A stretch of DNA of 32,000 nt from contig NZ_CP019964.1 in the NCBI RefSeq assembly GCF_002214165.1, forward strand, positions 690,001 to 722,000. The letters are read 5' to 3'. A program made the translations under genes and the position numbers. Shown here one piece after another: positions 82-18,506 of the stretch (position 1 is the first letter of the stretch; each line of letters starts with the position of its first letter). Source of the DNA: Candidatus Saccharimonadota bacterium. Its GTDB lineage: Archaea; Micrarchaeota; Micrarchaeia; Micrarchaeales; Micrarchaeaceae. The notes under the pieces are model-generated. The model saw only the letters and a list, made by a program, of their open reading frames with translations, had not been told where the DNA came from and searched no databases.

Positions 82-1506
82 ATGATAGATACAATGCTTG
101 CGATAACGTCCTTTTCCAATACAAGGACAAACCTTATACCGCTTATAGCCCTGGCTATAGGCCTGGACGCATCGTTTGTGAGCATTTGGTACATATTGGG
201 CAGCCTGTTGAACAACAACTCGCTCAAGCAATCCGCAATAAACGAGATTTATCAGCTTTTTGGAAACATAATTATAGTAATATTGATAGTATTCCTTCTG
301 CTCGCGTTCAGCAGCATATTCTACAACTCGCTGCAGGGAACAAAGATGATGAACAGCACCACTATATACAGCATGTGCCAGAACATCAACAGCTCTTCGA
401 GCCTTTCAATACTAAATCCCAGCGATTCTGGCAGCGGCAGCTCCCTGCTTTATAGCGGCAAGTCGGGAAGTTTCCCTGGCTTATGCGAGATGGTCAAGAA
501 CCCGACGACGACAACTGAAAAGATAGACTACCCGGTTGCTACTTCAGCTGTGATACTTGCAAATTTGACAAACCAGACTTTTACAAACCTTAACTATCTG
601 TTCGGTGTCGAGGCTTACATTGGTTTCTTAAGCAAGCTTACACCCACTGATGCAATATGTACAGGTGAAATAGCTCCCCCTGACATAATACCGATTTCAT
701 GCGTGGTTCCATTTTCAAGCCTTCCTATACTGCTGTTCATAAGATCCCAATATACCCCCTTGTCAGGTTACAGCGCAATTTATTCAGGGCTGGCAACTTT
801 AGGGGGCTTGATTACTACTGCCATGGAGTCATTCACCGCCCAACTGCTTATAATAGTCTCATTCATTTACGTATGGCCAATACTTCTTTTCTTAGGGCTC
901 GCATTGAGGTCTGTATTCTTTACTAGAAGGATAGGGGGATTGTTTATAGCGCTAGCCGTTGCATTCATATTATTTTACCCTTCTGTAATGGCCCTTGAGT
1001 ACCTTAGCCTCAACCGTGTGGTTGCTCCGACTGATGTGCTTACAGTAAACAGTACAGTAGTAGGAAGCAATGTCATAGCGCCCGTATACAATTACACCGA
1101 TACCTCTTCAAACAAGTTGGGTAGCTTAGACTTCTTTGTTGAACCCAGCATAAAGAGCGTTGCGCAGTCAACATCCTGCTGGGCGGGGACAGGTTCGGGA
1201 TTGATATTGACAGAGTCTGGGATGATTCTTGAAACCGACTCTGTTTCAAACCTCGTAGATTTATATAAAGTTTTTGACGGTGGATTCGATGGGGATGTTG
1301 GGGCATACTCGTTAGGGCTCGCGACATGCAATGAACAAGGTGCAATAAGCACCCTTTTTGCTTCATTTGATATATATGGAATTATGGGCATAACTGCATA
1401 CCTGCTACCGATATTTAACATAATAATAGTTATTTCCGGAGTAGTTGGACTATCTGGAATGCTCGGAGGGGATACAAATTTGGCTGGATTGAGTAGATTG
1501 TTATGA
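82..1506 (+). CDS. Polytopic membrane protein, paralog 1 of a 4-member family (474 aa), with a large sequon- and Cys-containing extracytoplasmic loop; function unknown
   Basis: Long ORF with SD-like GAGGT at 70-74. It has many hydrophobic segments and Ser/Thr/Asn-rich loops with N-x-S/T sequons. Family motif RSVFFTRRIGGLFIALAVAFILFYP lies at nt 907-981. The stop overlaps the next start (ATGA at 1503-1506). Confidence 0.85.
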   Translation: MIDTMLAITSFSNTRTNLIPLIALAIGLDASFVSIWYILGSLLNNNSLKQSAINEIYQLFGNIIIVILIVFLLLAFSSIFYNSLQGTKMMNSTTIYSMCQNINSSSSLSILNPSDSGSGSSLLYSGKSGSFPGLCEMVKNPTTTTEKIDYPVATSAVILANLTNQTFTNLNYLFGVEAYIGFLSKLTPTDAICTGEIAPPDIIPISCVVPFSSLPILLFIRSQYTPLSGYSAIYSGLATLGGLITTAMESFTAQLLIIVSFIYVWPILLFLGLALRSVFFTRRIGGLFIALAVAFILFYPSVMALEYLSLNRVVAPTDVLTVNSTVVGSNVIAPVYNYTDTSSNKLGSLDFFVEPSIKSVAQSTSCWAGTGSGLILTESGMILETDSVSNLVDLYKVFDGGFDGDVGAYSLGLATCNEQGAISTLFASFDIYGIMGITAYLLPIFNIIIVISGVVGLSGMLGGDTNLAGLSRLL

Positions 1507-2615
1507 CAAGATTAAGATTTGCGGCGGTTGGCATTTCGCTGTTCTTAGTGTTATTCATGGAGCTTGGCACCGGATTTGCACCTGCAGCCACAACCAGTTA
1601 TCTGCCAGCCAACCTATGCGGGAGCATGTACAATGTGGCAGGGAATCCAACAGGGTTTGTAAAATATGAGAGCTTGACTGGCTTGTTGGCGATATCGCTC
1701 ATACTTTTGACCATAATGCTTCTCATCACTGGAGTACTGTGGGCATTTGGCGGTCTGCTGGAAATGCCAAAGCTGAAGGAGTCAGCAAGAAGCGAGATTG
1801 GTGAGGTACTACTCACAGGATTGATAGTTGTTATAATTTTAGGCTCGTTTTCGCTGACCAATTTTTCGGCAGGAGATGCCCTTCCCCTATCGAATGGGCT
1901 TTTCAGCTCGCGCATCTATTATGATGACTGCAATGTGATATTTACTGGGGTACAGAAAGGTATATCTGAAGATATAGGGCTTTTGGCTTATGACGATGTG
2001 GTTAAACTTATATCTTCTTTAACCTTGACAATCGAGCCTGGATATTTTGGCTATTCGTTCTCTCCATACGCCGGAATGGGTTATGGCAGCAATGTAATAG
2101 GAGTTACAATGAGCATAGTTGGAGGCGTAGTAATGCTTTCATTCGCAGGCATCTTAGTATTGAACTATGTGTTCATCATAATGCCAATATTCCTTTTCAT
2201 TGGCATTGTGCTTAGGACAATCCCCTGGACCAGACCGGCAGGAGGGGCTTTCATAGGCATGTTCATAGGGTTTTTCATACTGTTCCCCTTGCTTCTGCAT
2301 TTTATGATAGTGGGAAGCATACAGACAATCAACCTGGCCACGGTTTCATCAAGCACACCTACCAGCCTTCCTGGATTAAGCGGACTCACCAATGTGCTGA
2401 ATATAATGGGAGACATAGAGGGATATGTTAGTGATTTTTCAGGAGGAATTGCCGCAGTGAATTCGGTTATAACTGATATCATAGGGCCTTTACTTTATAT
2501 AATATTGTCGCTTTTAATAACACTTATAATTGCATTTGACTTTACAGATACTATGGGAGACCTTTTAGGCTCACCCAGCTTAAGTTCATCAGGAGGGTTG
2601 AAAAAGTTAGTGTAG
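1503..2615 (+). CDS. Polytopic membrane protein, paralog 2 (370 aa)
   Basis: Start overlaps the previous stop. N-terminal signal-anchor-like segment. Family motif RTIPWTRPAGGAFIGMFIGFFILFP at nt 2214-2288. Second shared motif ..SARSEIGEVLLTGLIVVI.. follows an early TM helix. Confidence 0.85.
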   Translation: MTRLRFAAVGISLFLVLFMELGTGFAPAATTSYLPANLCGSMYNVAGNPTGFVKYESLTGLLAISLILLTIMLLITGVLWAFGGLLEMPKLKESARSEIGEVLLTGLIVVIILGSFSLTNFSAGDALPLSNGLFSSRIYYDDCNVIFTGVQKGISEDIGLLAYDDVVKLISSLTLTIEPGYFGYSFSPYAGMGYGSNVIGVTMSIVGGVVMLSFAGILVLNYVFIIMPIFLFIGIVLRTIPWTRPAGGAFIGMFIGFFILFPLLLHFMIVGSIQTINLATVSSSTPTSLPGLSGLTNVLNIMGDIEGYVSDFSGGIAAVNSVITDIIGPLLYIILSLLITLIIAFDFTDTMGDLLGSPSLSSSGGLKKLV

Positions 2616-2649: not shown

Positions 2650-3828
2650 ATGTTTGGAAAAAACAAAAACCATGGGAAGTTTGCGATCGCGCTTCTGCTA
2701 GCATTAGCTTTAATTGGATCTGCATACTTGTTTGCCGTGCAGACTCCTATCGCATTTGCTGGCCCTGCCGGATATGGCGCTTCACCAAACAACGCCAACC
2801 TTGTTGCTGCCAATTCGGGAGTTGAAGGTTATGGTCTTGCCAGCAGGCTAAATGTACAGGAACTCTCATTGGTAAGTCCTACAGGATTCGCATCAAAATG
2901 GCTTGCTCTTGCCTTCATATTTGCAATATCTATTATAATGGTGGCAGTGTTCGTATATGAGATAAGCAACATATCCAACAGCACAAATGGGAAGATGTGG
3001 GCAAGGACACAGATCTATGAAGCGGTCCTTTCAATAATAATGCTGCTTATATTCATAGGCATAGGCTCAATACTTATGGTAAATCCAAAGGCGGCTTATA
3101 ATTCGGTAGGGTTGCTGCCTTTTCAGTGCAACACTGCGAGCATAAACACGATTTACAATTTGTCGGCATGTGATATGGGGACATTTAACTCAAATGTCGA
3201 TTCGCTTATCTATATAATATATGGATTTACATTCTCTTCTGGCCTTGAGCCTGGTTTTTCGGTAAGCGTGACTCCTTTGGGGATTGAGGGCCAGCAGAAA
3301 CTTTGGTCGGTATCTGGCGGAATTTCCAGCTTCATGCCCTCCTCTTCACTAGACATATATAGCTATGTTATAGTGGCACTGATAACACTATTGATACTCA
3401 ATTATGTTCAGATGATACTTTTGACAGGGTCCCTATTTTTCCTTGCGGTTTTTGTGAGCTTGGGGCTTGTATTGAGAGCATTGGGCTTTTCCAGGAGTTT
3501 TGGAGGATCATTAATAGCTCTTGGAGTGGGGCTGGGCATAATCTACCCTCTTCTCGTATCAATTTCATATGGATTCGTGGTTGCATCGCAGTCTGCCATA
3601 GTACTGCCATCCTTCAGCGCAATTTCCAGCTCCGACCCTCTTGCAATCGTAAGCAACTTCATAAGTTACATGTTCGGAGGGTACCTTGACTCAATAGGAT
3701 ATGTTTTGGTAGGACTTACATTCCTTCCATTCCTAAACTTCATAATACTTGATTCGTTTATGATAGACTTCTCTTCTGCGATAGGAGAGAGGATAGGTTT
3801 TATGTCATTGATGACTGGCTTGGTGTGA
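2650..3828 (+). CDS. Polytopic membrane protein, paralog 3 (392 aa)
   Basis: SD-like GAAGGT at 2638-2643. Signal-peptide-like N-terminus (..LIGSAYLFAVQTPIAFA/GPAG). Family motif RALGFSRSFGGSLIALGVGLGIIYP at nt 3475-3549. Confidence 0.85.
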   Translation: MFGKNKNHGKFAIALLLALALIGSAYLFAVQTPIAFAGPAGYGASPNNANLVAANSGVEGYGLASRLNVQELSLVSPTGFASKWLALAFIFAISIIMVAVFVYEISNISNSTNGKMWARTQIYEAVLSIIMLLIFIGIGSILMVNPKAAYNSVGLLPFQCNTASINTIYNLSACDMGTFNSNVDSLIYIIYGFTFSSGLEPGFSVSVTPLGIEGQQKLWSVSGGISSFMPSSSLDIYSYVIVALITLLILNYVQMILLTGSLFFLAVFVSLGLVLRALGFSRSFGGSLIALGVGLGIIYPLLVSISYGFVVASQSAIVLPSFSAISSSDPLAIVSNFISYMFGGYLDSIGYVLVGLTFLPFLNFIILDSFMIDFSSAIGERIGFMSLMTGLV

Positions 3829-3834
3829 TATTAT

Positions 3835-5019
3835 ATGAATAGGTTTTTTAAATTTACAATTCCGGCGCTTTTCTTGATTTTAGTCGTACTTCTGAGCTAT
3901 GGCTTAATCTATAACCAATTTAATAACACGCTGAAGTCAAATTACGGTTATGAAATATTGAATTTTGGAGGGGCTGGAGGGAGCTCTTCGAGCCAATGTG
4001 GCCTTGTCCCTTCTTCAATATCGAAAACGATATCAAGCAATGAACCTTGGTACTGTCCTATAAATGAGGAGATTTTCAATGACTGGCAGACTTATCTTCC
4101 TATAGCTGTGATAGTGCTTTTGATTGGGCTCTTTGTTGATATAATAATATTCGGTATAGGCGTAGCGCTCAAGAATGACAGAGTCAGGAACATTGGAGTT
4201 GGGGAGCTGTATGAAACCTTTGCCAGCGCTATAATAATCTTTTTGTTCCTTTACATATGTGCGGTTACCTTTGGACTTATTCCTGGCGTGTATGTAGGCA
4301 ACATAAACCCATATGCAACCGCTTTCCACCTGATGCTTACAACATCCAATTCTGTTGAGAAACTTTACACTGGCCTTTTCCATACTTACGCCATGGACAA
4401 GTTTATTACTTCAATTGAAATAAAATTTTATGGAAGCAACCTTGGGGATTTGGATTTGAATACTTATGGGCAATATATATACGGAGTAGCCTATACCCCT
4501 CTTGAGATCGGTTTCATAGAACCTGCAAGCTTCATTATGTCAATGCTCATAGATGGGACTGCAATTTTATACTCGGAGTATTATCTTCTTGTGTTCTTTT
4601 CTGTCAGCGCCATACCTGTGTTCATAATACCTGGAGTAATATTCAGGATAATACCTCCTACTAGGGGTCTTGGGGGAATGATGATTGCCCTTGGAATAGC
4701 ATTTTACTTGGTATTCCCAACCCTGTTTGCTGCAGTCTATTATTTCTCTTCAAGTTCATTTTTGACACAGATAAGTGTAGCTACACTGCAGGCGGAGCAG
4801 ATAAATTCGCAGGGAATCGCCTCTGCCAAGGGCTTCTCAAGCACAAGCCCTGCTGCTGAAAATCTAAGCAGCATACAATCAAGCATGAGTTCTTTCTGGC
4901 TACTGGTACTGTTCTACCCCGCACTGATAATTGCGGTATCCTACGCATTTGTGCAGACGATAGCGCAGTTCATAAGCGGATCGACATATTCAAGCCGTAG
5001 GATAAGAGGTTTCGTGTGA
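3835..5019 (+). CDS. Polytopic membrane protein, paralog 4 (394 aa)
   Basis: GGTG at 3822-3825 upstream of the ATG. N-terminal signal anchor. Family motif RIIPPTRGLGGMMIALGIAFYLVFP at nt 4645-4719. Confidence 0.85.
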   Translation: MNRFFKFTIPALFLILVVLLSYGLIYNQFNNTLKSNYGYEILNFGGAGGSSSSQCGLVPSSISKTISSNEPWYCPINEEIFNDWQTYLPIAVIVLLIGLFVDIIIFGIGVALKNDRVRNIGVGELYETFASAIIIFLFLYICAVTFGLIPGVYVGNINPYATAFHLMLTTSNSVEKLYTGLFHTYAMDKFITSIEIKFYGSNLGDLDLNTYGQYIYGVAYTPLEIGFIEPASFIMSMLIDGTAILYSEYYLLVFFSVSAIPVFIIPGVIFRIIPPTRGLGGMMIALGIAFYLVFPTLFAAVYYFSSSSFLTQISVATLQAEQINSQGIASAKGFSSTSPAAENLSSIQSSMSSFWLLVLFYPALIIAVSYAFVQTIAQFISGSTYSSRRIRGFV

Positions 5020-5119: not shown

Positions 5120-5953
5120 TTGAACAATAATATGTTATTTGGCATTGAATACGCTATTTCGATATTGTTCTTGGTTGCTGCAATAGTTATGCCATTGAGC
5201 ATTGGCGGCTATCTAGTCAAGATAATATTGTTTTTAATCGCCATGATCTTTGATGTCATAGCGTTCACCTCCCGTTATTATGCTTACTTATTTATACCGT
5301 TTATAAAAGGAAGAGGGAAGAGAGTGGTATTAAGCAATGAGGATGCATATTATCTCTCCGCATCTGCAGATTCTATATTGAAGAAGGTAGGTGACAAATT
5401 CATAGCTACTGTATATATCTTATTGCCCGTTTATACTTCTTCCACTGAAATGAATGACGACCAAAAGCTTGAGTTCACCCAGAAAGTTAGCAGGATGGTA
5501 GGGATTACACGCGACCCGGCAAGATTCACTACGGAGGTACTGATAATGAATAAGGATGACTACCTAAGAGAGCTTAAAGATGCGATTTCACAAGCGGACA
5601 ATGAAGTTGCACAGCTTAACCTTAACAAAAACCCGGACAAAAAAAGGATGGAGCATTATAAGGGTAAATCCGTTATGCTCAGAAACCTACTAAATGATAT
5701 GGGAAAGGTTACATCTTATGAAGAAATTTCTTATGTTACAGTATCGGCATACGGCTACAAAGAGTACGAAGCCGTAGCAAATGCACAGCAGAAAGCAAGG
5801 GAGCTTATATCAGGTATAAGCTCTGTTTTCGGTGTCCCTGTAAGCATAATCACAGGAAACGAGCTACTAAAGTTTGTTGAACCGGAATACCTTATACCAT
5901 ATGTTACGGTTACTACGCAGATGAACAGTGATTTGGAAAGCAAAGTGATATGA
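5120..5953 (+). CDS. Bitopic membrane protein, twin A (277 aa): two N-terminal TM helices plus a cytoplasmic alpha/beta and coiled-coil domain
   Basis: ORF starts at TTG 5120 (alternative ATG 5132). The hydrophobic N-terminus has two helices; the rest is charged and soluble. Its stop overlaps the next start (ATGA at 5950-5953). It is a paralog of the next gene. Confidence 0.75.
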   Translation: MNNNMLFGIEYAISILFLVAAIVMPLSIGGYLVKIILFLIAMIFDVIAFTSRYYAYLFIPFIKGRGKRVVLSNEDAYYLSASADSILKKVGDKFIATVYILLPVYTSSTEMNDDQKLEFTQKVSRMVGITRDPARFTTEVLIMNKDDYLRELKDAISQADNEVAQLNLNKNPDKKRMEHYKGKSVMLRNLLNDMGKVTSYEEISYVTVSAYGYKEYEAVANAQQKARELISGISSVFGVPVSIITGNELLKFVEPEYLIPYVTVTTQMNSDLESKVI

Positions 5954-6783
5954 TGGATGAAACTACGATGATTTATCTTGCACTTACGCTTGTGGTGCTT
6001 CTCCTTGCATTTGGGACAATTGGGAGCATTGCCAAGGGTATATATTATGACATAGCAATACTGCTTATCATTATAACCGCAGGCTTGATAGTGATAATCA
6101 GCCAAGTGGATTATGTTATGTTCACAATGCTTACCTCATTGTTGGGCACTACGATAAAACCTGCAAATAACTATATGATAAATAAAAAGCAGGATTCTAT
6201 AGTAAAAAATGTGAATAACCTTTATTATGCAACAGGATATGTAACTGCAAACCTGTTCCCTTACGTATTCAAGAATGAAAATCCTCCAGAAGATGAGGAG
6301 GATAGGATGAGCCAAGCGCCTGAGTTATGGGAAAATATAGTAAGGAGTCTTGGATTTCCATTCAAATTCCATGTTTTTTCAATAGGCCTTAATGTACAGG
6401 CTTCCAGGGACGAGCTTGAAGGGAAAAGGTCTTACCAAGAGTTCCAACTATCAAGGGCTTTGCAGGGAAATGCAAATGAGACAGTAATAACAAGCCTGCA
6501 GAGGCAGATAAGGATTCTGCAATCCAAGATAGATATGATATCTTCCGGAGAGAAACCTATAGCTACTATCATGTATATAGAGACGACTGCCGTGGGTATT
6601 ACCGATCAGGAAGCTCTTGATAAGCTTTCATCCCAAGTAACAGCCATACAGGTTGCGTTTAGCTCGTTTGATGTTGAACTCAGGAGGATAGTCGGGAGAG
6701 AATTATATGAAATATTCAAGTTCAACTTTGCACTCCCTCTTACAGTTAAAGATGCTTCAAGGCTGTTTGACCAGCAGGGTTGA
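5950..6783 (+). CDS. Bitopic membrane protein, twin B (277 aa), paralog of 5120..5953
   Basis: Same length and architecture as twin A. Alignable blocks: DSILKKVGDKFIATVYI vs DSIVKNVNNLYYATGYV, EISYVTVSAYG vs ATIMYIETTAVG, and ITGNELLKF vs IVGRELYEIFKF. Confidence 0.75.
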   Translation: MMDETTMIYLALTLVVLLLAFGTIGSIAKGIYYDIAILLIIITAGLIVIISQVDYVMFTMLTSLLGTTIKPANNYMINKKQDSIVKNVNNLYYATGYVTANLFPYVFKNENPPEDEEDRMSQAPELWENIVRSLGFPFKFHVFSIGLNVQASRDELEGKRSYQEFQLSRALQGNANETVITSLQRQIRILQSKIDMISSGEKPIATIMYIETTAVGITDQEALDKLSSQVTAIQVAFSSFDVELRRIVGRELYEIFKFNFALPLTVKDASRLFDQQG

Positions 6784-6798
6784 TTAGAAGATGATATT

Positions 6799-8316
6799 AT
6801 GTCTATTGTAAAGATGCAACACGTGATGAGCAATGAGGTGTCTAAGAGGTCATTTTTGTCAAGGCCTCCAGAGCCGCCGGCAAATATACTGCTTAATGAT
6901 CCTATGAATTCAATTTATATAGGCAATACCAAGATATTCAAGATCCCGTTCGCTTGGAATTTCGACAATGTCACCAACCCCCATATAGCAGTAGTGGGAA
7001 TAACAGGTGCAGGAAAGAGCTATTTTGTAAAGACCTTCCTGATAAGGGCAAACTATATATGGGATACGAATGCTGTGATAATAGACTGGGCTTCGGAGTA
7101 CAAGGCATGGGTACAGCAGAGCGGTGGCACAATACTTTCATTGGGGAAGGGGGACTATATCAATATCATGGACCTTGCAGGTATGAAGCCATTGGATAGG
7201 GTCAAGCAGATAATGGGCGCATTTGAGATACTTACGGATATCGCGTCTTATCCTGAACAGCGCAGGCTGACTGAAGAGGCTTTGGAGCAGGCTTACGCCA
7301 ATCTGGGCTTCAACTTGGCGGAAAGGCCGCCTGAAGGCAAGGATGCGCCGACGCTTAAGGATGGGATAGCCCTGCTTGAAGAGCAGCTTCAATCGGGAGG
7401 ATACCAGTACCCGGCAGAACTTGAAAATGCAATATATAGGCTTAGGCAGTTTGCGAGGCCAGGGGAGGACTTCTTCTCAAGGAAGAGCACTTTGGACATA
7501 GAAAAGATGGCTAATTCTGGATTGGTCGACATAGATCTTTCAGGATTGTCTGATGATACTTTTAGGGCATTGGCAGCATTGTTCATCTTGCAGACATTGA
7601 AAGAGAAAATGAGGTTTGAAGGTTTTGCCGAAACAAAAGGGATAAAGACCTTCGTGGTGCTTGATGAAGCTTGGAAGGTGGCCAGCGATGACAGAAGCGA
7701 TGCAATCACGATAGTCAGAGAGGGAAGGAAATACCAGTTCGGGCTCATAGTGGCATCCCAAAACCCCACGGATATTAATGAGGCGATATACTCAAACGTG
7801 GGCACTAACTTCATACTTAGGATAAAATTTGAAAGGTTCCTTGATTACATACAGGGCTCTTTGAACTTCTCGCCTTATATCAGAAGCGAGATAAGCAATT
7901 TCGGAGTAGGTCAAGCCGCTGTGGACATGTCATTCACAACATCGATGAGGTTCCCAAACATATTCGTTCTGGACAGGATAAAGGGTGAAGAGCCATTATA
8001 CATATACACAATAAACTTGACAGATGTGCTGACACAGGCAGAGGTTTCGGCCAACCTTCTCCCAAGAGATTACCAGTTTGAGGAAGATGAGCTCAAGAAC
8101 AAGATGATAAACTATAACGTCAGCGGGGACATAATAAACCAGCTGTTTAAGAAGCTGGACAGCCAGGGGAGGACCATAAACATGCTTGATTTCGTGAGAA
8201 CCCTTTACTCTTACCATCTTAGGGTGGCGGATATAATTGCGTTGCTGAAAAGCATGAGCATAGAGGACCTTCTCATAACAAGGATAATCTCCTCTTCAGG
8301 TGTAAGAAATGAGTGA
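6799..8316 (+). CDS. P-loop ATPase of the FtsK-HerA superfamily, VirB4/TrbE/CedB-like (505 aa)
   Basis: Walker A GITGAGKS at nt 6997-7020. Walker B VVLDEAW at nt 7654 onward. REGRKYQFGLIVASQNPTDI block. IIDWASEY and INIMDL blocks resemble the conjugative VirB4/TraC ATPase pattern (xIDpxGEY .. iNPl). No TM segment. Confidence 0.85.
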   Translation: MSIVKMQHVMSNEVSKRSFLSRPPEPPANILLNDPMNSIYIGNTKIFKIPFAWNFDNVTNPHIAVVGITGAGKSYFVKTFLIRANYIWDTNAVIIDWASEYKAWVQQSGGTILSLGKGDYINIMDLAGMKPLDRVKQIMGAFEILTDIASYPEQRRLTEEALEQAYANLGFNLAERPPEGKDAPTLKDGIALLEEQLQSGGYQYPAELENAIYRLRQFARPGEDFFSRKSTLDIEKMANSGLVDIDLSGLSDDTFRALAALFILQTLKEKMRFEGFAETKGIKTFVVLDEAWKVASDDRSDAITIVREGRKYQFGLIVASQNPTDINEAIYSNVGTNFILRIKFERFLDYIQGSLNFSPYIRSEISNFGVGQAAVDMSFTTSMRFPNIFVLDRIKGEEPLYIYTINLTDVLTQAEVSANLLPRDYQFEEDELKNKMINYNVSGDIINQLFKKLDSQGRTINMLDFVRTLYSYHLRVADIIALLKSMSIEDLLITRIISSSGVRNE

Positions 8317-8638
8317 ACAGAACTCTTATACGATAAGCAAGGCAGACCTCAGGAAACTGCTGATAAACTACAAGATTAGCGAGGACACTATCGCCCGGTT
8401 TTTTGGGGAGCTGGAAAAGTCCCATAGACATATAAATGCACTCGCGTTCGTATCGATATTGGAGAAGTCTGGAGTAGACTTAGATAATATTGTAAACATA
8501 TTGCGCCGCCTTGGTATGGATGACGTCAGGATAAATAATATACTGAATGATGAAGACGAACAGAAGCTTGCAGCAGAGCCAGGAAGGATATTCAATGCCT
8601 CAGTTGAATTCAGCGCAGAGGATGAAGTTAATGAGTAA
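8309..8638 (+). CDS. Small acidic protein (109 aa), paralogous to the C-terminal ~75 aa of the upstream ATPase
   Basis: Its start overlaps the ATPase stop (ATGAGTGA). LRKLLINYKISEDTIARFFGELEKSHRHINALAFVSIL..NIVNILRRLGMDD aligns with LKNKMINYNVSGDIINQLFKKLDSQGRTINMLDFVRTL..DIIALLKSMSIED of the ATPase tail. Confidence 0.7.
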   Translation: MSEQNSYTISKADLRKLLINYKISEDTIARFFGELEKSHRHINALAFVSILEKSGVDLDNIVNILRRLGMDDVRINNILNDEDEQKLAAEPGRIFNASVEFSAEDEVNE

Positions 8639-9032
8639 AAGCAGCATATCTAACAACAGGTGCATAATATGCGGCCAGCAGAAGCCAGGGTTGCATGTGA
8701 AAGATGATTTTGTACTGGATTCAATAAGATGGATCAAAAGGAACATAACCAAAAATGAAAAGGGGTACAAACTGGTAGTGTGTAAGGAGGATTACAAAAA
8801 ATACCTTAAAGAAAGGAACAAATATATAAGAAGGCAGATATTTTATATAGCGATAGGGATAGTGTTTGCGGCATTGCTGATAATAATGTCGGGTGGTTCG
8901 ATAGGTGCAATACTCTTTGGGCTTGCTATAATATTGCTGCTTTATCTGCTTTCGCTCCTTTCATATATTCCAGCAGTAGATCTTCCTGAAAAATTTGTAT
9001 CAAAGGATTTAAAAGGGAAATATGATAAATGA
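8631..9032 (+). CDS. Small membrane protein with an N-terminal CxxC..H..C segment and two C-terminal TM helices (about 133 aa)
   Basis: The track ORF 8547..9032 overlaps the previous gene for 90 nt. ATG 8631 (ATGAGTAA overlap with the stop at 8636-8638) or ATG 8622 is the likelier start. CIICGQQKPGLH...VVCKED is followed by a hydrophobic IFYIAIGIVFAALLIIMSGGSIGAILFGLAIILLLYLL segment. Confidence 0.6.
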   Translation: MSKSSISNNRCIICGQQKPGLHVKDDFVLDSIRWIKRNITKNEKGYKLVVCKEDYKKYLKERNKYIRRQIFYIAIGIVFAALLIIMSGGSIGAILFGLAIILLLYLLSLLSYIPAVDLPEKFVSKDLKGKYDK

Positions 9033-9058: not shown

Positions 9059-9790
9059 ATGCCTGAATCTATGGGGATAATAAAACCTAAAGTAAAAGAA
9101 TTCTACTTAAATAGCAGGTTAGTTGGAAGTTTCGACGATATGCTCGGCAGGTTTTCTGATGTAAAGACATTTATATCGAAAAAGCAGCAGGACAATTCAT
9201 TAGTTTTAGTCTCTATAGAGAGCAGGGATATGCAGAAGAATCCTTTCCTGTTCATAGTTCTTGTATTCAAGCCTGATTCTATAACTGTGCAGTATTCTAT
9301 ACCGCTGGACAGCAGCGAAAAGATGAGAAAGATTTATGTTATAAGGGCTGTGCTTGAGCTGCTTGCACTCGTTACAGACCTATATATTGTAGACCAGAGT
9401 GCACTTTATACTTATATCAATTCTTCTATAGATGATATATTGGGCTCATTAAGTCAAAGCTACAGTTCGTTGTTCAATAGCTATGATTCGTTGTTCAGCG
9501 AATTCAGGGAAATACGCAGGCTTAACCTTGAGCTTCAAAATTCGAATAAAACGCTTACAGCAAAAGCGGTCCAGATGGAAGACGAGAATAAAAGGCTTAA
9601 TGAGCAGCTGGATCAGCTGCATAAGTATTCCGACCAGGCTTTGATGGTTATGGTCGAGGATTGGATAGACGAGCATAACAACACAATAGACTTGGATGCG
9701 TTTTCCAATACGCACCACATACCAATATCAAGAGTCGAGCAGATACTTAACAAGATGGTCACGGAAGGTTACATATCCATACAGGGATGA
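9059..9790 (+). CDS. Cytoplasmic protein (243 aa): N-terminal alpha/beta region, central coiled coil, C-terminal winged-helix-like module
   Basis: SD AGGTG at 9046-9050. Heptad-like segment LNLELQNSNKTLTAKAVQMEDENKRLNEQLDQL. The C-terminus HHIPISRVEQILNKMVTEGYISIQG looks like the recognition helix and wing of a wHTH. Confidence 0.7.
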   Translation: MPESMGIIKPKVKEFYLNSRLVGSFDDMLGRFSDVKTFISKKQQDNSLVLVSIESRDMQKNPFLFIVLVFKPDSITVQYSIPLDSSEKMRKIYVIRAVLELLALVTDLYIVDQSALYTYINSSIDDILGSLSQSYSSLFNSYDSLFSEFREIRRLNLELQNSNKTLTAKAVQMEDENKRLNEQLDQLHKYSDQALMVMVEDWIDEHNNTIDLDAFSNTHHIPISRVEQILNKMVTEGYISIQG

Positions 9791-9930
9791 ATATGATATA
9801 CAATGTCAGGGTAAATCAAAAGCTTAAATATGTAAGAGTCTACCGAATAGTTAAAAGGCTCTCGAAAGGAGAAAACGGCTTGACAAAACTTTTCGTAAAA
9901 CTGTTTGCAAAAAAGGGGAATACGGAGTGA
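9787..9930 (+). CDS. Unlisted micro-ORF (47 aa, very basic): MNMIYNVRVNQKLKYVRVYRIVKRLSKGENGLTKLFVKLFAKKGNTE
   Basis: ATG 9787 overlaps the upstream stop (ATGA at 9787-9790). Its stop at 9928-9930 lies 7 nt before the next start and inside that gene's SD-like GGAGTGA. It fills an otherwise empty gap in a tightly packed operon. It is below the size cutoff of the ORF track. Confidence 0.35.
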   Translation: MNMIYNVRVNQKLKYVRVYRIVKRLSKGENGLTKLFVKLFAKKGNTE

Positions 9931-9937
9931 TGGCTGA

Positions 9938-12328
9938 ATGAAAAAGAAGATAGCTATTTTAATTTTAGTCGTGGTCATGGCAATAATCTTTGCAGGGATA
10001 TTTGCTTATCTCTCCAGTCTCTTCGCACAGCTAAAGCCTCCTGCGCCTCCAGTATTGAAATATATAGCGCCTAGTGAAAATGTGTACCTTACAGGGCAAA
10101 ATCTGCTGTTTTACAATTATAGCTACGACATCATGCCTTACACTCTTTTGGACTATGCAGCATCAAATGTAACCGGGCTGTACATCAATGAATCGATATT
10201 GCAGAAATCCCCTCCTTCCTACAACGAGATATACATATTGAATTATACTAATGACTGCTTGTCATGCTCCAACCCGACCGCGGAAGTAAGCTATATTACC
10301 AATGACCTTATAAAATACAGAATCATAAGCAATTACAGCCAAGTTCAGGTTGTGTCCGCTTCACAGGTTGCTTCTTTACCAAATAACTCCATACTAATAA
10401 TAATGAACGGGAGGCTCCCAATATCAATGATGGGCAACTATAGCTTGTCGGACAACAATCCGCAATTGGCAAGGCAATACAATGAAAGCAATACCTCTGT
10501 AATCGGATATGCATTGATGAAAGGCATTTCAATAATCTATATAGGGAATGATTTTTCAAGCTTAGTTGGGCCTGGAGATATCGTGGTCCCGGATAGCAGG
10601 ATGCCCTCTTATCTTTCAACTTCCGGTGTTTCGCCGCTGCCAAAAGAAAATGGATTCTATTTTACAAACAGGACTTTTGTATTTAATAATGGAAGAACGT
10701 ATGGGCCTGTATCATATACCTATGTTTATAACGGTACTATAATTGCATTCTCCAATTACCTCAGTTCATGGCCTTCATTGAACGATTCCGCTTACGATAT
10801 AGCTAAGTCAATATCCCAATTGTACTGGATCCCCACTTATATATCTGGAACAGCTACGGTAAATGTTGGATTGAACAATGTGGTGTCAGGATCTGAAGGA
10901 GTATTTTTGAACAGCAGCACCTTGGGCTATTCATACCCCCTAATAAAAAAGCTGAATTCCGGGATAATAAGAATAGTCGCCTATACCAATAGCACCTATG
11001 GATTTGGGAATGGATCAATCTATAACTATCTTACTTATAAACCGGATTACAAGGTATACGGAAAATTGGGCATACAGAATAACATCGTAGCGGGATCCAC
11101 AGATCCTGTTGATATGGACATTTTCACCAATTCATCAACAAATGTAAATATAGTCCCCCATCTGGCAATATACTATACCAACATGACCAAATTTGAGGAT
11201 ATATACCTTACATCTTTTGAAGCCTCGGGCAACTTTTCCTTGATACAGTACAAGACATTTACACTACCTCCAGGACAGTATATAGCGATTCTAAGGAACG
11301 ACCTCGATTTTGACTATGCCTCTGCATTATTCACGGTCCCTCCCATTTCGGTAACCCTGTCTCCGTATTTCACAAAAAATGTGTTCACCTTCACTGTATA
11401 TTCACAGGGTAAGCCAATCTCTGGAATTCCATACTCAATAAACGTCGATGGCAAATATACACAGAATGGAACAGTGGAGAACGGTGTAATAAATTATACC
11501 TTGCCTAAGACTGCACCAAAGCTTACAACTAAATCCACGTTTAACCTAAATATGCTTTCTACGGATTTTGTAAACACTGCAACACCGCCAACATTCCATA
11601 TAAACTCTGAATACATAGAAGCCGGAATTGTATTCCTTGTCGCTTTCATAGTCATAGTATTTGTGCATCCGGCACCAAGAGACGAATTTTATATTGATGT
11701 GTCAAATCTGCCAGTAGCCAAAAAACAGGACATACGTTTAAAGGACATAGATCTGATTGGAGCATTTGACAAGCTTAATACTTATTACCATTGGAGGTAT
11801 ATGCCTTTGACAGTGCATGAGTTCAGGACCGCTGTATCAAATTACATCCGCTCCAACAATATACCTGTGAACCTTACTCTGAACAACATCAATACGATAC
11901 TTACACAGATGGTAGAGAAGAACGAATTGGTTTCTGTAAGAGATCTTTATGCGCCAAAATCATGGATCACATTGAGCAAGCATGACATTGCATATCTGGC
12001 CATATTCAAGGAGCTTAGGATGTTCATGATATCGCATGCGATAACCTTTACAGACCTGGATAGCAACGACAAGGCAGACATGGTAATAGCAATGAAGGAC
12101 CAGAAGGCGAATATAATAATTTATTCGAAGACATCAAAATTCAAGGAGGTATCTATAACTCCAGGATTAAAGACCTTTATAGTATTCTTGAGCGAGGAGG
12201 AGCTGAATAAGTTCAAGGAAACTGTTTACAGTGTGTCCTCTTATGATATGGATCTTTTCAGGATTTACCTATCTTCAGGGTTGGTAAAATTGGTGAGCTT
12301 GGACAACCTAAATGACCTGCTCTCCTGA
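9938..12328 (+). CDS. Large bitopic surface protein (796 aa): signal anchor, ~525-aa sequon-rich ectodomain, TM helix, ~220-aa cytoplasmic tail with a winged-helix-like module
   Basis: N-terminal hydrophobic helix at aa 5-30. I count 20 N-x-S/T sequons by hand between aa 60 and 521. Second TM EAGIVFLVAFIVIVFV at about nt 11612-11668. The cytoplasmic tail contains NNIPVNLTLNNINTILTQMVEKNELVSV. Confidence 0.8.
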   Translation: MKKKIAILILVVVMAIIFAGIFAYLSSLFAQLKPPAPPVLKYIAPSENVYLTGQNLLFYNYSYDIMPYTLLDYAASNVTGLYINESILQKSPPSYNEIYILNYTNDCLSCSNPTAEVSYITNDLIKYRIISNYSQVQVVSASQVASLPNNSILIIMNGRLPISMMGNYSLSDNNPQLARQYNESNTSVIGYALMKGISIIYIGNDFSSLVGPGDIVVPDSRMPSYLSTSGVSPLPKENGFYFTNRTFVFNNGRTYGPVSYTYVYNGTIIAFSNYLSSWPSLNDSAYDIAKSISQLYWIPTYISGTATVNVGLNNVVSGSEGVFLNSSTLGYSYPLIKKLNSGIIRIVAYTNSTYGFGNGSIYNYLTYKPDYKVYGKLGIQNNIVAGSTDPVDMDIFTNSSTNVNIVPHLAIYYTNMTKFEDIYLTSFEASGNFSLIQYKTFTLPPGQYIAILRNDLDFDYASALFTVPPISVTLSPYFTKNVFTFTVYSQGKPISGIPYSINVDGKYTQNGTVENGVINYTLPKTAPKLTTKSTFNLNMLSTDFVNTATPPTFHINSEYIEAGIVFLVAFIVIVFVHPAPRDEFYIDVSNLPVAKKQDIRLKDIDLIGAFDKLNTYYHWRYMPLTVHEFRTAVSNYIRSNNIPVNLTLNNINTILTQMVEKNELVSVRDLYAPKSWITLSKHDIAYLAIFKELRMFMISHAITFTDLDSNDKADMVIAMKDQKANIIIYSKTSKFKEVSITPGLKTFIVFLSEEELNKFKETVYSVSSYDMDLFRIYLSSGLVKLVSLDNLNDLLS

Positions 12329-14677: not shown

Positions 14678-16465
14678 ATGATCAATATGGCAACGTTAAC
14701 TGATGCTAAATTAAATTCCAAAGTTGAGATTACAGGAATCTCATTCTCATTAGGAAGCTATTCTATATCAAGCAGGGATAAGGTAAGTTCTATCGTTGAT
14801 AGCAGTAGGCTTAAGGATGAGACAGACAAGGTTGTGCTTGGGCTTGGAATAAACCGCACGAGCGTTGCCGCAAAAGGCGAAGATGTGATAACGAATGCGG
14901 CACTTGCGATAATAAAGCTTATAGTATCTTACAATGTTGATACCTCAAAGGTATCGAATGTGGTTATAGCAACTGAAACTCCTCACGATATATCACAGAG
15001 CATGGCAAACCCCGTATTGAAATTGACAAACAAGCTTATAGACAAGCTAAACAACAATGGATACAACATAAAGCATCTTAATCCCGAGATAGGAATGCAT
15101 GTGCAATCCGCCTGCACATCGGCCGGATCTGCTATATCAAGTTATGCAATAAATGGGCTCAGTGGATATGCGATAATAGTTGCAACAGACAATGCAGAGT
15201 ATAAGCTCGGAACTGCTGCAGATGAAACAGGAGGTTTTGGATCAGTTGCGGTGTTGCTTGAGCCATATGAGAAAGGCAAAAAAGGGATAGTTCTTCTTGA
15301 TAAAATAGGGCATTACTCTGATGAGGTTCCCGATTTCATAAAGGTTATCTTTGATGACAATTATTCGTCTTCTGGGCTAAGCTTGGTGGCCAGATATCCG
15401 ATAGTTTTTGGCAAATTCTCAGAAGAGGCTTATTCCCTTGCCATATTTGAGGCTCTTAAAAGGATATCTGAGAATACCGGAATACCTATAAATAACCGGA
15501 AGATGCTTGAGAGCTATGACCTAATATCACATCTTCCATATCCGAAGATACCTGAAAAGCTGCTTGCATATCTTATAAGGCACTTGAGCAGGACTGACAG
15601 CAGCTTGAAAGAGGATCTTTCTGTTGATTTGGGCATCCTCAATTCTTCAGGCACGATGTTAAAAGAGAGCTTTCTTCCTGGATTCGACAGTTTGGAAGAC
15701 GAGTTCAAATTTATAATAAAATTTGAGAGCCTTTACAACAATGCTGTCGGCCTTTCTTCCGAGATAAAAGGCAGGATGTCTGAGAGGAAGAATGAGATGG
15801 ATTCATTTTTAAATGCAGGAAATACCAAGGATGAAGTGAAAAGCATAATCTGGGAAATCGAAAACATAAGTTCGGAATTCGAATCAAATACGGATATATT
15901 GGAATTGCTTGGAAATTGCAAGGAATCTTTCTTGATGCTATTGGAAAGTGATAAGATTGGCGAAAAGGACATAGAAAATGCCTTCAAGCCAATAATGGAT
16001 GTCATAAACGAATTTGAAAAAGAGGACAATGTATATAACAAGAGCATACGGTCGTCAAAAATATTCAAGCAGATAAAAGAGGAGCTACACATAGAGGAAG
16101 CTGTGAAGCTTTCAAAGGAGATAGGCAATATATACACAGGCTCAATATTGATAGGGTTGGTTAGCTATCTAACCAACGTTAAAAAGCCTAAGAACAACCT
16201 TCTGCTGACATTTTATGGAAGCGGATTTGAGTCGTATGTGATAGAGGCAATTCCTAATATAGATGAAAACTTTATCTCCCTGCTTGACAGGAATGTAGAG
16301 AATGAATTTGCAAGGCAGAGGATAATAGATGGGGAGACTTATATAAAAATAAGAAAAAACGCGTATGATGATGCCAAAATACCACTGTCAAGGGACAACA
16401 TATTCAGGGTAGATTTCATAAATGAAGGGGAATTCCTTGATGAGATTAAAAAATATAAAAATTAG
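14678..16465 (+). CDS. HMG-CoA-synthase-like thiolase-fold enzyme with a large internal insertion (595 aa)
   Basis: Blocks match the bacterial/eukaryal-type HMGS pattern: LGLGINRTSVA, GEDVITNAA, VVIATETPHDISQS (Glu), HVQSACTSAGSAI (Cys), IIVATDNAEYKLGTAADETGGFGSVAVLLEP, LISHLPYPKIPEK (His), EIGNIYTGSILIGLVSYL, LLTFYGSGFES. Confidence 0.75.
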   Translation: MINMATLTDAKLNSKVEITGISFSLGSYSISSRDKVSSIVDSSRLKDETDKVVLGLGINRTSVAAKGEDVITNAALAIIKLIVSYNVDTSKVSNVVIATETPHDISQSMANPVLKLTNKLIDKLNNNGYNIKHLNPEIGMHVQSACTSAGSAISSYAINGLSGYAIIVATDNAEYKLGTAADETGGFGSVAVLLEPYEKGKKGIVLLDKIGHYSDEVPDFIKVIFDDNYSSSGLSLVARYPIVFGKFSEEAYSLAIFEALKRISENTGIPINNRKMLESYDLISHLPYPKIPEKLLAYLIRHLSRTDSSLKEDLSVDLGILNSSGTMLKESFLPGFDSLEDEFKFIIKFESLYNNAVGLSSEIKGRMSERKNEMDSFLNAGNTKDEVKSIIWEIENISSEFESNTDILELLGNCKESFLMLLESDKIGEKDIENAFKPIMDVINEFEKEDNVYNKSIRSSKIFKQIKEELHIEEAVKLSKEIGNIYTGSILIGLVSYLTNVKKPKNNLLLTFYGSGFESYVIEAIPNIDENFISLLDRNVENEFARQRIIDGETYIKIRKNAYDDAKIPLSRDNIFRVDFINEGEFLDEIKKYKN

Positions 16466-17444: not shown

Positions 17445-18506
17445 ATGGCAAAAATTTATGTTTTAAGGTTAGGGCACAGGCCAAAAAGGGATAAGAGGGT
17501 GACTACGCATGTTGGGCTTGTTGCAAGAACCTTCGGCGCTGACAGATTTGTTCTTGTTGGGTCGGACAGCAAAGTAGTATCTGGGCTAAATAGTGTATCG
17601 AATAGATGGGGAGATGGAAAATTTGAAGCTACTTCTACTAAAGACGCGAAAAAATATGTTGAGCAATGGAAAAAATCTGGAGGTATTATTGTACACCTTA
17701 CAATGTATGGCTTGAACTTGTCTGGATTTGATATGAACAAGGTTAGAGGCAAAGACTTATTGGTTGTAGTAGGTGCTGAAAAAGTTGAACCTTGGTATTA
17801 TGAGAATGCTGATTATAATATCGCAGTTGCCAATCAGCCGCACAGTGAAGTTTCCGCATTGGCCATGTTTCTTGATAGGTATTATCAGGGAAGGGAACTT
17901 GATAAAGGTTATACCTCAAAGCTTTCGATAAAACCGATGGAAAATGGCAAATATGTGACTTTAATACCTAATGAGTTGGAATGCATCGATATACTCAAAA
18001 ATGAAAAGGTAGATGATAAATTGCTGCTCCATTCAAAGGCTGTTTATGAATTGGCTGTTGAAATTGGAAAGAGGGCCAACGCAAACCTTAATCTTATAAC
18101 AGCAGGTGCATTGCTTCATGACATAGGCAGGAGCAAGGCAAATGGCTTGGATCATGGGCACATAGGGGCAGAGATCCTAAGGAAAAAGAGGGTAAATGAG
18201 AAGGTTGCAAGAATAGTGGAAAGGCATATAGGAGCTGGATTGACAAAAGAGGATGTGGTAAAAAATGGCCTATACATACCTAAAAAGAACTATGTCCCGA
18301 TCACATATGTCCCGATCACATTGGAGGAAAAGATAGTGGCGGAAGCTAACAACCTTATTTATGGCTCAAAAAGAGTAAGAATAGAAAAAACGATTGAACG
18401 TTATAAAAAAGAGGGGTTGAATAACTCAGCTGAACACATATTGAAGCTCCATAAGGAACTATCAAAAAAGTGCAAAATTGACTTGGACGACCTGTGTACG
18501 GATTAA
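17445..18506 (+). CDS. trm56: tRNA Cm56 2'-O-methyltransferase (aTrm56, SPOUT) fused to a C-terminal HD-domain phosphohydrolase (353 aa)
   Basis: N-terminal VLRLGHRPKRDKRVTTHVGLVARTFGAD .. HLTMYG .. VVVGAEKV .. ADYNIAVANQPHSEVSALA is the aTrm56 pattern. The C-terminal half has H..(x27)..LLHDIGRS .. ERHIGAG (HD/HDIG-type). Confidence 0.8.
   Translation: MAKIYVLRLGHRPKRDKRVTTHVGLVARTFGADRFVLVGSDSKVVSGLNSVSNRWGDGKFEATSTKDAKKYVEQWKKSGGIIVHLTMYGLNLSGFDMNKVRGKDLLVVVGAEKVEPWYYENADYNIAVANQPHSEVSALAMFLDRYYQGRELDKGYTSKLSIKPMENGKYVTLIPNELECIDILKNEKVDDKLLLHSKAVYELAVEIGKRANANLNLITAGALLHDIGRSKANGLDHGHIGAEILRKKRVNEKVARIVERHIGAGLTKEDVVKNGLYIPKKNYVPITYVPITLEEKIVAEANNLIYGSKRVRIEKTIERYKKEGLNNSAEHILKLHKELSKKCKIDLDDLCTD
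18291..18320 (+). repeat. Perfect in-frame 15-bp tandem duplication inside the HD domain
   Basis: TATGTCCCGATCACA occurs at 18291-18305 and again at 18306-18320, encoding YVPIT-YVPIT. Confidence 0.95.

Follow-up and report, generated by a model that had tools for sequence, protein, structure and literature searches.

A split and expanded relative of the Ced/Ted systems probably encoded around a single CedB/VirB4-type ATPase in Micrarchaeota

What machine does a VirB4-like ATPase drive when it is encoded in an archaeal chromosome with no coupling protein, relaxase or second motor beside it? The question was raised by an open reading frame (ORF), here called g11, at positions 6799 to 8316 of a 32,000-nucleotide stretch of a Micrarchaeota chromosome (contig NZ_CP019964.1, positions 690,001 to 722,000), referred to below as the window. 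The original prediction, made from the nucleotide sequence, described g11 as a lone VirB4/CedB-like motor and as a euryarchaeal counterpart, with completely different membrane partners, of the chromosomal Ced and Ted DNA-import systems. The organism is not a euryarchaeon but a DPANN Micrarchaeon, and the close homologues of the protein are all from Micrarchaeota. The analysis indicates that g11 is probably, though far from certainly, the sole ATPase of a chromosomal, Micrarchaeota-wide membrane translocation apparatus that is a very divergent and expanded relative of Ced and Ted.

The reading frame is open for 505 codons and all of the motifs quoted at the outset were located in its product: GITGAGKS (Walker A, residues 67-74), IIDWASEY (94-101), INIMDL (121-126), ALEQAY (161-166), APTLKDGIALL (183-193), VVLDEAW (Walker B, 286-292) and REGRKYQFGLIVASQNPTDI (307-326). 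M1, M6 and M10 are candidate start codons, and gene callers gave a 500-residue product on an identical contig. The database holds 1083 homologues, the top 120 of which are full length and 67-100% identical. In an alignment of 21 sequences, with identity down to 24%, G67, G70, G72, K73, D289, E290, R310, K311 and Q321 are invariant and R307 is nearly so (at least 90% of the homologues). These results confirm that g11 is a real, strongly conserved gene with motifs far beyond chance. The protein has a RecA-like core (residues ~37-400) followed by a helical C-terminal domain of ~80 residues, and it lacks an N-terminal domain. The top Pfam match was DUF87/HerA-central (64.8 bits, cut-off 23.2); AAA_10 (49.1 bits, cut-off 27.5) and P-loop_TraG also exceeded their cut-offs, and by these matches g11 is a P-loop ATPase of the FtsK-HerA superfamily. 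Database names of the orthologues are 'ATP-binding protein', 'HerA-like ATPase' and 'VirB4 component', and the partner genes are annotated as hypothetical.

The relationship of g11 to particular motors was evaluated with curated models and structures. The best NCBIfam model was CedB (NF041017, an equivalog), which matched in two stretches covering part of the model at 67.3 bits against a cut-off of 700. Next came CedD, two monoderm VirB4 models, HerA and TraC, each far under its cut-off; CedB was also the top model in seven of the eight g11 relatives scanned. VirB4-family models (Mycoplasma integrative and conjugative element VirB4, CD1110, TraC and TIGR00929) spanned the entire core (residues 37-329), which the VirB4 structure 4ag5 likewise covered, whereas HerA models and structures mostly reached its C-terminal half. 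The HerA equivalog models scored 47-52 bits against cut-offs of 800-970. The best plasmid matches were TraC/VirB4 proteins of ~24% identity across residues 56-433. Pfam found no HAS-barrel in g11, where a core starting at about residue 37 leaves no room for one, and no PF03135 (the CagE_TrbE_VirB N-terminal domain) in g11, in its neighbours g09 and g10 or in the CedB-like relatives described below.

The decisive link to Ced is a bridge family, P0156, P0169 and P0200 (873-888 residues), the nearest non-orthologous relatives of g11 (phmmer E 1e-30 to 1e-50; hhalign of the g11 profile against the P0156/P0169 family, 100%, E 3e-52). The three proteins align to the CedB model end to end, at 141, 126 and 94 bits. 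Furthermore, the P0169 gene lies directly downstream of a gene whose 291-residue product has a full-length CedA match (90 bits, E 1.4e-25) as well as matches to CedE and Pfam CedA1. P0156 and P0169 carry an extra C-terminal region interpreted by eye as a winged helix-turn-helix (wHTH) and a PD-(D/E)xK-like motif; g11 has an unrelated helical domain there, and no counterpart of the region was found in g12, g14 or g16. With CedB as the top model and the bridge family standing beside a CedA homologue, the sequences support placing g11 nearer to CedB/VirB4-type motors than to HerA repair helicases, in agreement with the predicted resemblance to conjugative VirB4/TraC-type ATPases. By sequence it is, however, not a CedB equivalog.

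Homologues of the 291-residue CedA-like protein were found in metagenome-assembled genomes (MAGs) of Bathyarchaeia, Brockarchaeota and Nitrososphaeria. CedA/CedB-like gene pairs occur in these MAGs (L087:168-3890; P0169, P0380-P0400), which suggests that Ced-type systems reach beyond Sulfolobales and Desulfurococcales within Thermoproteota.

The domain that is missing from g11 was found in the two genes directly ahead of it. The g09 family profile matched the N-terminal region of the CedB-like P0156/P0169, two transmembrane (TM) helices plus a soluble domain, at hhalign 95.7% (E 9e-9), and g10 matched the same region at 84.6% (E 7e-6). The two proteins are paralogues of each other (97.7%, E 2e-12, 260 columns). 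When 105 members of the g09/g10 family, none with an ATPase domain, were scanned against NCBIfam, CedB (18 proteins) and VirB4 (5 proteins, best E 3.6e-5) were the two most recurrent families. Moreover, g10-like proteins accompany the ATPase in distant relatives, at loci L089 (hhalign 99.2%) and L091 (96.5%). On this profile evidence g09 and g10 are stand-alone homologues of the CedB/VirB4 N-terminal domain. Because g11 lacks this domain and g09 and g10 match it, the motor is a CedB/VirB4-type ATPase with its membrane-anchoring N-terminal domain in separate genes, of which there are two. In the crenarchaeal system, CedB and CedD have been shown to possess N-terminal domains that correspond structurally to different portions of that of VirB4 (PMC11868833).

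The C-terminal domain of the motor also has a separate copy. The profile of g12, directly downstream, aligned with columns 434-509 of the ATPase profile (hhalign 97.2%, E 2.8e-11, 76 columns), so the C-terminal ~80 residues of g11 (window 8080-8316) are homologous to g12 and the domain has therefore been duplicated as a separate gene. Of 84 loci, 83 have g12. No significant similarity emerged from pairwise BLASTP of the ATPase with g12, of g09 with g10 or of g09 or g10 with P0156; these relationships were resolved by profile comparisons alone. The sole other match of g12 was a weak one to IF2_N.

The remaining membrane proteins were compared as families. Neither the membrane proteins of the window nor g02, g13 or g15 had a significant match in Pfam or NCBIfam. 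Six polytopic proteins, g03 to g08, are mutual paralogues by hhalign of family profiles (95-100% for all 15 pairs) and have in common the motif R-x3-P-x-R-x2-G-G ... Y-P. In an NCBIfam scan of 111 such paralogues, two matched CedA (best E 5.3e-6), and TcpD (4) and TrbC pilin (2) were among the other recurrent weak matches. Alignments of g03-g08 with a 22-sequence CedA-like profile were not significant but colinear, with the central motif P-x2-R-x2-G-G ... (Y/I)-P lining up. An AlphaFold2 (AF2) model of g08 from a 77-sequence alignment (predicted local distance difference test, pLDDT, 84; predicted template modelling score 0.74) was all-helical, with ~6 TM segments and helices of 40-65 residues around them; these helices must project well past the membrane. 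A single-sequence AF2 model of g07 was discarded (pLDDT 50).

The first gene of the cluster, g01, encodes a predicted cleavable signal peptide and a two-helix hairpin with a basic loop, an architecture kept at L003, L068, L072, L085 and L091. The protein resembles the N-terminal hairpin of g04 (hhalign 67.7%, E 4.9e-5), which echoes the published relation of CedA1 to CedA and of VirB2 to VirB6 (PMC9905601). The assignment of g03-g08 as CedA/VirB6-like and of g01 as VirB2-like is considered probable but unproven. The predicted complete difference of the membrane partners did not hold: g09 and g10 correspond to split-off N-terminal domains of CedB/VirB4, and g03-g08 and g01 gave weak but mutually consistent CedA/VirB6 and VirB2-like signals. 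Judged from their sequences, the partners are probably very divergent Ced or type IV secretion system (T4SS) parts.

Several observations weigh against this interpretation. No component of the cluster reached a curated family threshold in Pfam or NCBIfam, in the sense of the CedB equivalog and VirB4 family cut-offs (67 bits against 700 for CedB; 32.3 bits against 643 for VirB4_CagE, TIGR00929), whereas the superfamily models DUF87 and AAA_10 did exceed theirs. When the 21-sequence g11 profile was searched against PDB sequences, HerA-like, DptH, VirB4 and HerA chains scored about equally (98-102 bits), and PDB sequences do not discriminate the class of the ATPase because the scores of these chains are almost equal. 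There was no TrbL/VirB6 signal in the Pfam scan of the 111 membrane paralogues, hhalign of g03-g08, and of their single-copy homologue at L091, against the CedA-like profile stayed under 4% probability, and a rescan of 10 candidate paralogues recovered neither of the two CedA-model matches. Foldseek of the g08 model against the PDB gave nothing at E<=1e-3; TrwI/VirB6 chains ranked 9 and 10, a statistically weak result (E 0.59, probability 0.72, target-normalised TM-score 0.41). For g01 there was no significant pilin match (Pfam T4SS_pilin E 4.3, nothing in the PDB). Finally, an ATPase that is more conserved than a topoisomerase, as described below, is unusual for a gene-exchange system and could point to a more basic cellular role. 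Neither the profile built from the six paralogues nor that built from g01 sequences had a relevant match in PDB sequences. The hhalign comparisons with single sequences of R388 TrwI, TrwL, TrwM and TrwK were also negative; this test is uninformative because the CedA-like positive control against TrwI failed as well.

The gene is the eleventh of a same-strand, tightly packed cluster of ~16, the 5' end of which is cut by the window (Table 1). The sequence further upstream, which the original prediction had proposed for inspection, was examined on an identical contig, L003 (window position = L003 position minus 9919), and four more cluster genes, g01 to g04, were found there. The start of g06 overlaps the stop of g05, as expected of an operon. 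A carbamoyltransferase gene flanks the cluster upstream, and the topoisomerase VI subunit B (topo VI-B) gene flanks it downstream. The G+C content is uniform over the window, the cluster matching its surroundings.

Table 1. Genes of the cluster around the ATPase g11; coordinates are window positions unless prefixed with L003
Gene	Coordinates	Strand or location	Description
g01	L003:6209-6613	upstream of window	134 aa, signal peptide and two hydrophobic helices
g02		upstream of window (L003)	243 aa, ~6 TM segments
g03, g04	L003:7479-9990	just upstream of window	polytopic membrane paralogues of g05-g08
g05	82..1506	+	474-aa polytopic membrane protein, one of the six paralogues g03-g08
g06	1503..2615	+	370-aa membrane paralogue
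g07	2650..3828	+	392-aa membrane paralogue
g08	3835..5019	+	394-aa membrane paralogue, best conserved of the six; candidate CedA/VirB6-like channel/stalk subunit
g09	5120..5953	+	277 aa, two N-terminal TM helices and cytoplasmic domain of ~210 aa
g10	5950..6783	+	277 aa, two TM helices and soluble domain; second stand-alone N-terminal-domain protein
g11	6799..8316	+	505-aa FtsK-HerA-superfamily ATPase
g12	8309..8638	+	109 aa, free-standing copy of the ATPase C-terminal helical domain
g13	8631..9032	+	~133 aa (longest ORF from 8547), CxxC-containing cytoplasmic head and TM hairpin
g14	9059..9790	+	243 aa, N-terminal alpha/beta domain, coiled coil, winged-helix-like C-terminal end
g15	9787..9930	+	47-aa basic protein, called as a gene on identical contigs
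g16	9938..12328	+	796 aa, N-terminal TM helix and TM helix 555-582; candidate surface/adhesion component

A scan of one genome per species showed that at least 568 candidate stretches (a count of stretches, not of genomes) encode a relative. Synteny was evaluated in the best 80 of these loci, and tblastn tables covered 84. With a few exceptions that bear other labels, the best 80 are Micrarchaeota-type records, and they include the cultured Ca. Micrarchaeum strain A_DKE. From g02 to g16 the genes keep their order, and the core g09-g13 is never interrupted; the membrane-paralogue block stands elsewhere in a few genomes, and at L068 g01 lies directly ahead of g09. At least 57 of the best 80 loci have topo VI-B downstream, and many have the KH protein there too. 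In 57 Micrarchaeota genomes the median identity of the ATPase was 69.6%, compared with 55.1% for topo VI-B and 49.4% for the neighbouring KH protein at the same loci, and purifying selection is strong. The locus is chromosomal and non-mobile, syntenic across the phylum and set within housekeeping DNA, in the manner of the Ced/Ted kind.

Smaller forms were found in more distant relatives, in a housekeeping context in both cases. At L091, a more distant archaeon whose ATPase is 28% identical, a minimal five-gene cassette (L091:5285-9407) encodes, beside the ATPase, an 82-residue g01 homologue (hhalign 97.5%), a single 291-residue homologue of g08 and g06 (97.0% and 96.8%), a 229-residue g10 homologue (96.5%) and a coiled-coil/wHTH protein with a weak g14 match (35%). 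At L089 (ATPase 38% identical; L089:9196-12198) a g10-like protein, the ATPase and a g14-like protein (hhalign 99.4%) stand together. The L091 cassette may be read as the Ced/Ted triad plus two extra parts and as ancestor-like, the Micrarchaeota cluster being the expanded form.

Of the genes downstream of the ATPase, g13 occurs in 83 of 84 loci, always adjoining g12, g15 holds the same position in 65 loci by tblastn and g16 is kept at the cluster end in 72. The matches of g14 in Pfam were weak and limited to coiled-coil and PCI/helix-turn-helix families. No Pfam match was found for g16, which has an extracellular region of ~520 residues with 21 N-x-S/T sequons and a cytoplasmic tail of ~210 residues.

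The absence of partners was examined at several scales. Among the 16 cluster genes, g11 alone encodes a Walker A protein, and the rest of the window is housekeeping, so that the predicted lack of a coupling protein, relaxase or second ATPase within 12 kb downstream was borne out. No type IV coupling protein (T4CP; VirD4/TraG) or relaxase domain was found in the window or 10 kb upstream, the part of this genome that was searched, nor in the inspected gene tables of relatives' loci. No integrase was found in the cluster, in the window or in the inspected gene tables of relatives' loci, and NurA, Mre11 and Rad50, which as conserved neighbours in related genomes would have counted against the original prediction, were absent from the same set. 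The motor is thus single within the cluster but not genome-wide, where related Micrarchaeota carry other HerA-superfamily ATPases: the A_DKE genome holds two further HerA-like ATPases elsewhere, Micr_00101 and Micr_00641 (PMC8975820), and three members of arCOG00280 are listed for strain Mia14, as read from the column order. For this strain, the arCOG phyletic tables of the Mia14 study lack a VirB4 arCOG and offer just the generic 'HerA helicase' arCOGs (category L). A CedD-like second motor may lie elsewhere in the genome. A defence system and a virus-packaging motor were also considered and dropped; no effector genes and no capsid genes, respectively, were found beside the ATPase in any locus.

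The resemblance to known systems is closest for Ced of Sulfolobales and Desulfurococcales (CedA, CedA1, CedA2, CedB, CedD, CedE). Both are chromosomal and free of relaxase and T4CP, the best curated model of the ATPase is CedB, and the nearest outgroup of g11, a family with a linked CedA homologue, can be aligned with CedB from end to end. Both combine a small two-helix membrane protein with one or more polytopic ones, the small protein resembling the N-terminal hairpin of the polytopic partner as CedA1 resembles CedA (PMC9905601), and both distribute a VirB4-type N-terminal domain over more than one polypeptide, in Ced over CedB and CedD (PMC11868833). However, g11 scores 67 bits against the 700-bit CedB cut-off, and CedB has an N-terminal TM segment and VirB4-like domain fused to the ATPase where the Micrarchaeota have two separate 2-TM proteins. 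There are six polytopic paralogues instead of one or two, with additional conserved genes (g02 and g12-g16), and the cluster is conserved phylum-wide and very tightly. The carrier is a DPANN symbiont, whereas Ced belongs to free-living crenarchaea. The six-fold expansion of a polytopic protein recalls the VirB6 expansions in Rickettsiales.

With Ted of Thermoproteales (TedA, TedB, TedC) the cluster would have in common the logic of a triad, in which a VirB4-like ATPase works with putative VirB6-like membrane and VirB2-like pilin partners, and the predicted cleavable signal peptide of g01 corresponds to that reported for TedC (PMC9905601). However, TedB is a canonical VirB4, and Ted loci are accompanied by VirC1/ParA, Rad50 and HerA genes (PMC9905601) that are absent at the Micrarchaeota cluster. 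Conjugative T4SSs of monoderms and archaeal plasmids (MPF-FATA) are similar in that the g11 core aligns with VirB4 models and 4ag5, that TraC is the best plasmid match and that VirB6/TrwI is within the Foldseek top 10 for g08, with no significant E value; they differ by VirD4, relaxase and mobile-element context, none of which is present here, and g11 lacks PF03135 and scores far under the cut-offs. The chromosomal T4SS of Patescibacteria (candidate phyla radiation) is likewise VirB4-centred and relaxase-less, has VirB2-like pilins and occurs almost throughout a radiation of ultrasmall episymbionts that depend on hosts (PMC12102498). It is bacterial, nested in MPF-FATA VirB4 and thus independently acquired, and its components are recognised by standard models, unlike those of the Micrarchaeota cluster. 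The HerA-NurA resection helicase shares the DUF87/HerA central domain and the conserved C-terminal half of the RecA core, but g11 has no HAS-barrel and no NurA, Mre11 or Rad50 neighbours, and its partners are all membrane proteins. On sequence grounds the locus fits best as a domesticated T4SS of the Ced/Ted kind, in a split and expanded version that occurs phylum-wide in Micrarchaeota.

If so, the components could work together as follows. A hexameric ring of g11 would dock under the membrane on g09 and g10, as VirB4 docks through its N-terminal domain and VirB3 in T4SSs. The CedA/VirB6-like g03-g08 would form a heteromeric channel or stalk, its long helices extending past the membrane. The ATPase would extract the VirB2-like g01 from the membrane, producing a short pilus or conduit through the S-layer, with g16 as a putative glycosylated surface component and g12 and g14 as putative cytoplasmic adaptors. 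The cargo would most likely be DNA passing between the symbiont and the wall-less Thermoplasmatales cell that hosts it, because of the analogy with CedB and with the FtsK-HerA 'pumping' ATPases; import into the symbiont is, in our opinion, the most likely direction.

The same T4SS/Ced-derived apparatus might instead be no DNA importer at all, serving as a VirB2-type adhesive pilus or conduit and/or for the transfer of proteins, lipids or metabolites between symbiont and host; this is rather unlikely, though to be taken seriously. No DNA-processing gene is present in the cluster, the C-terminal region of P0156/P0169, nuclease-like as judged by eye, is replaced in g11 by the unrelated helical domain, and the very strong conservation suits a function in obligate host dependence. 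The Patescibacteria offer an analogue, a relaxase-less VirB4 system with VirB2-like pilins (PMC12102498; PMC12857230), and VirB4/TraG-like ATPases have been proposed for host-interaction secretion in Nanohaloarchaeota, where they are domains of giant proteins and constitute a separate case (PMC10266531). However, CedB, the closest characterised relative, imports DNA (PMC9905601, PMC11868833), members of the FtsK-HerA superfamily are mostly DNA pumps, and no effector-like genes are evident in the cluster.

A membrane-tethered pump of the FtsK/HerA type acting on the cell's own chromosome in segregation, division or repair, with the membrane proteins as divisome or anchor, is improbable. The HerA central domain is the top Pfam match of g11, HerA-like chains share the top score in the PDB sequence search, g11 is presumably counted among the 'HerA helicase' entries of the Mia14 arCOG tables, its conservation exceeds that of topo VI-B, and g14 has weak coiled-coil matches to ZapB, MreC and CdvB. 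However, g11 has a core starting at about residue 37 and no HAS-barrel N-terminal domain, and NurA, Mre11 and Rad50 are missing from the loci with inspected gene tables. HerA models reach the C-terminal half only, whereas VirB4 models and 4ag5 cover the whole core, g09 and g10 match CedB/VirB4 and not HerA, and the nearest outgroup is linked to CedA. That the cluster is what remains of an integrated plasmid or conjugative element, as a genomic island of the sort suggested in general terms for membrane-protein-rich regions in the Mia14 genome paper (PMC5498576), is very improbable: a TnpB gene does lie 17 kb downstream, but the gene order is the same across the best 80 species-level loci with topo VI-B and the KH protein downstream in many, the G+C content equals that of the surroundings, integrase, relaxase and T4CP are lacking, and the ATPase evolves more slowly than its housekeeping neighbours.

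A few observations on individual genes were made in passing. Two g11 orthologues, P0122 and P0123, bear large inteins with LAGLIDADG-like blocks at catalytic motifs. That of P0122 (506 residues, beginning CLDGEE and ending SSN, with Cys at +1) lies directly ahead of Walker B, and that of P0123 (~690 residues) lies within the P-loop (GSGK|SVHY...FVHN|SYLIK). In L085, another Micrarchaeon, the ATPase is called in three pieces of 244, 180 and 86 residues (L085:12846-14366), probably through assembly frameshifts, and the pilin-like g01 gene is in tandem duplicate (L085:1625-2495), the C-terminus of the first copy being divergent or frameshifted. The g01-type proteins of three loci (L003:6209-6613, L085:2118-2495, L068:7635-8003) have a conserved Cys near the C-terminus of the mature part, and two of the three have a further Cys near the mature N-terminus (I-C-x-V-Y). 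Head-to-tail cyclisation occurs in some VirB2/TrbC pilins; as a speculation, a terminal disulfide could replace it in the g01-type proteins.

The housekeeping part of the window encodes topo VI-B, the KH protein, an HMG-CoA synthase, an aTrm56-HD protein, L1/L10/P1, SUI1, Csl4/Rrp4-like and EndoV-like proteins, CDC48, TauE, a ROK kinase and one TnpB. The HMG-CoA synthase-like ORF (14678-16465, +; 595 residues) has weak matches to the N- and C-terminal Pfam halves with an unmatched insert of ~230 residues between them. A 353-residue ORF (17445-18506, +) fuses a tRNA 2'-O-methyltransferase aTrm56 domain to a C-terminal HD phosphohydrolase domain. The TnpB/IS605 OrfB-type gene (29462-30718, +) contains HTH_OrfB_IS605, OrfB_IS605 and Cas12f1-like TNB domains.

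We know of no dedicated transfer machinery defined for Micrarchaeota. Full-text literature searches found no paper tying Micrarchaeota or DPANN archaea to CedB, Ced, T4SS or VirB6 for this locus, which is also unmentioned in the Ced/Ted paper (PMC9905601), in the 2025 T4SS nomenclature review and in the Micrarchaeota culture papers. The cluster is present in two co-cultured Micrarchaeota, on the A_DKE chromosome (locus L009) and in Mia14 (a match to the window). Its build is unusual, with a motor whose N-terminal domain is split off and duplicated and a putative channel of six-fold paralogues, and its kinship is with the one archaeal system for which DNA import is known. Domesticated T4SSs of the Ced/Ted kind would extend beyond Thermoproteota, and Micrarchaeota would join Patescibacteria as a second case of ultrasmall episymbionts that keep a relaxase-less VirB4-family system.

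The apparatus may be imagined as a host-interface nanomachine of Micrarchaeota, reduced in other archaea, in which a six-paralogue VirB6/CedA-like ring or stalk, a VirB2-like tube and a CedB-type motor on two anchors draw DNA, which would supply nucleotides and genes, or other macromolecules out of wall-less Thermoplasmatales hosts. This picture is tentative and, as a whole, doubtful. Conceptually the locus stands nearest to the Patescibacteria T4SS, which likewise lacks a relaxase and is needed for epibiotic growth (PMC12102498); if the picture is true, the Micrarchaeota machine would be its archaeal, independently evolved counterpart. How DPANN archaea get nucleotides, lipids and genes from their hosts is the question for which this locus offers a candidate.

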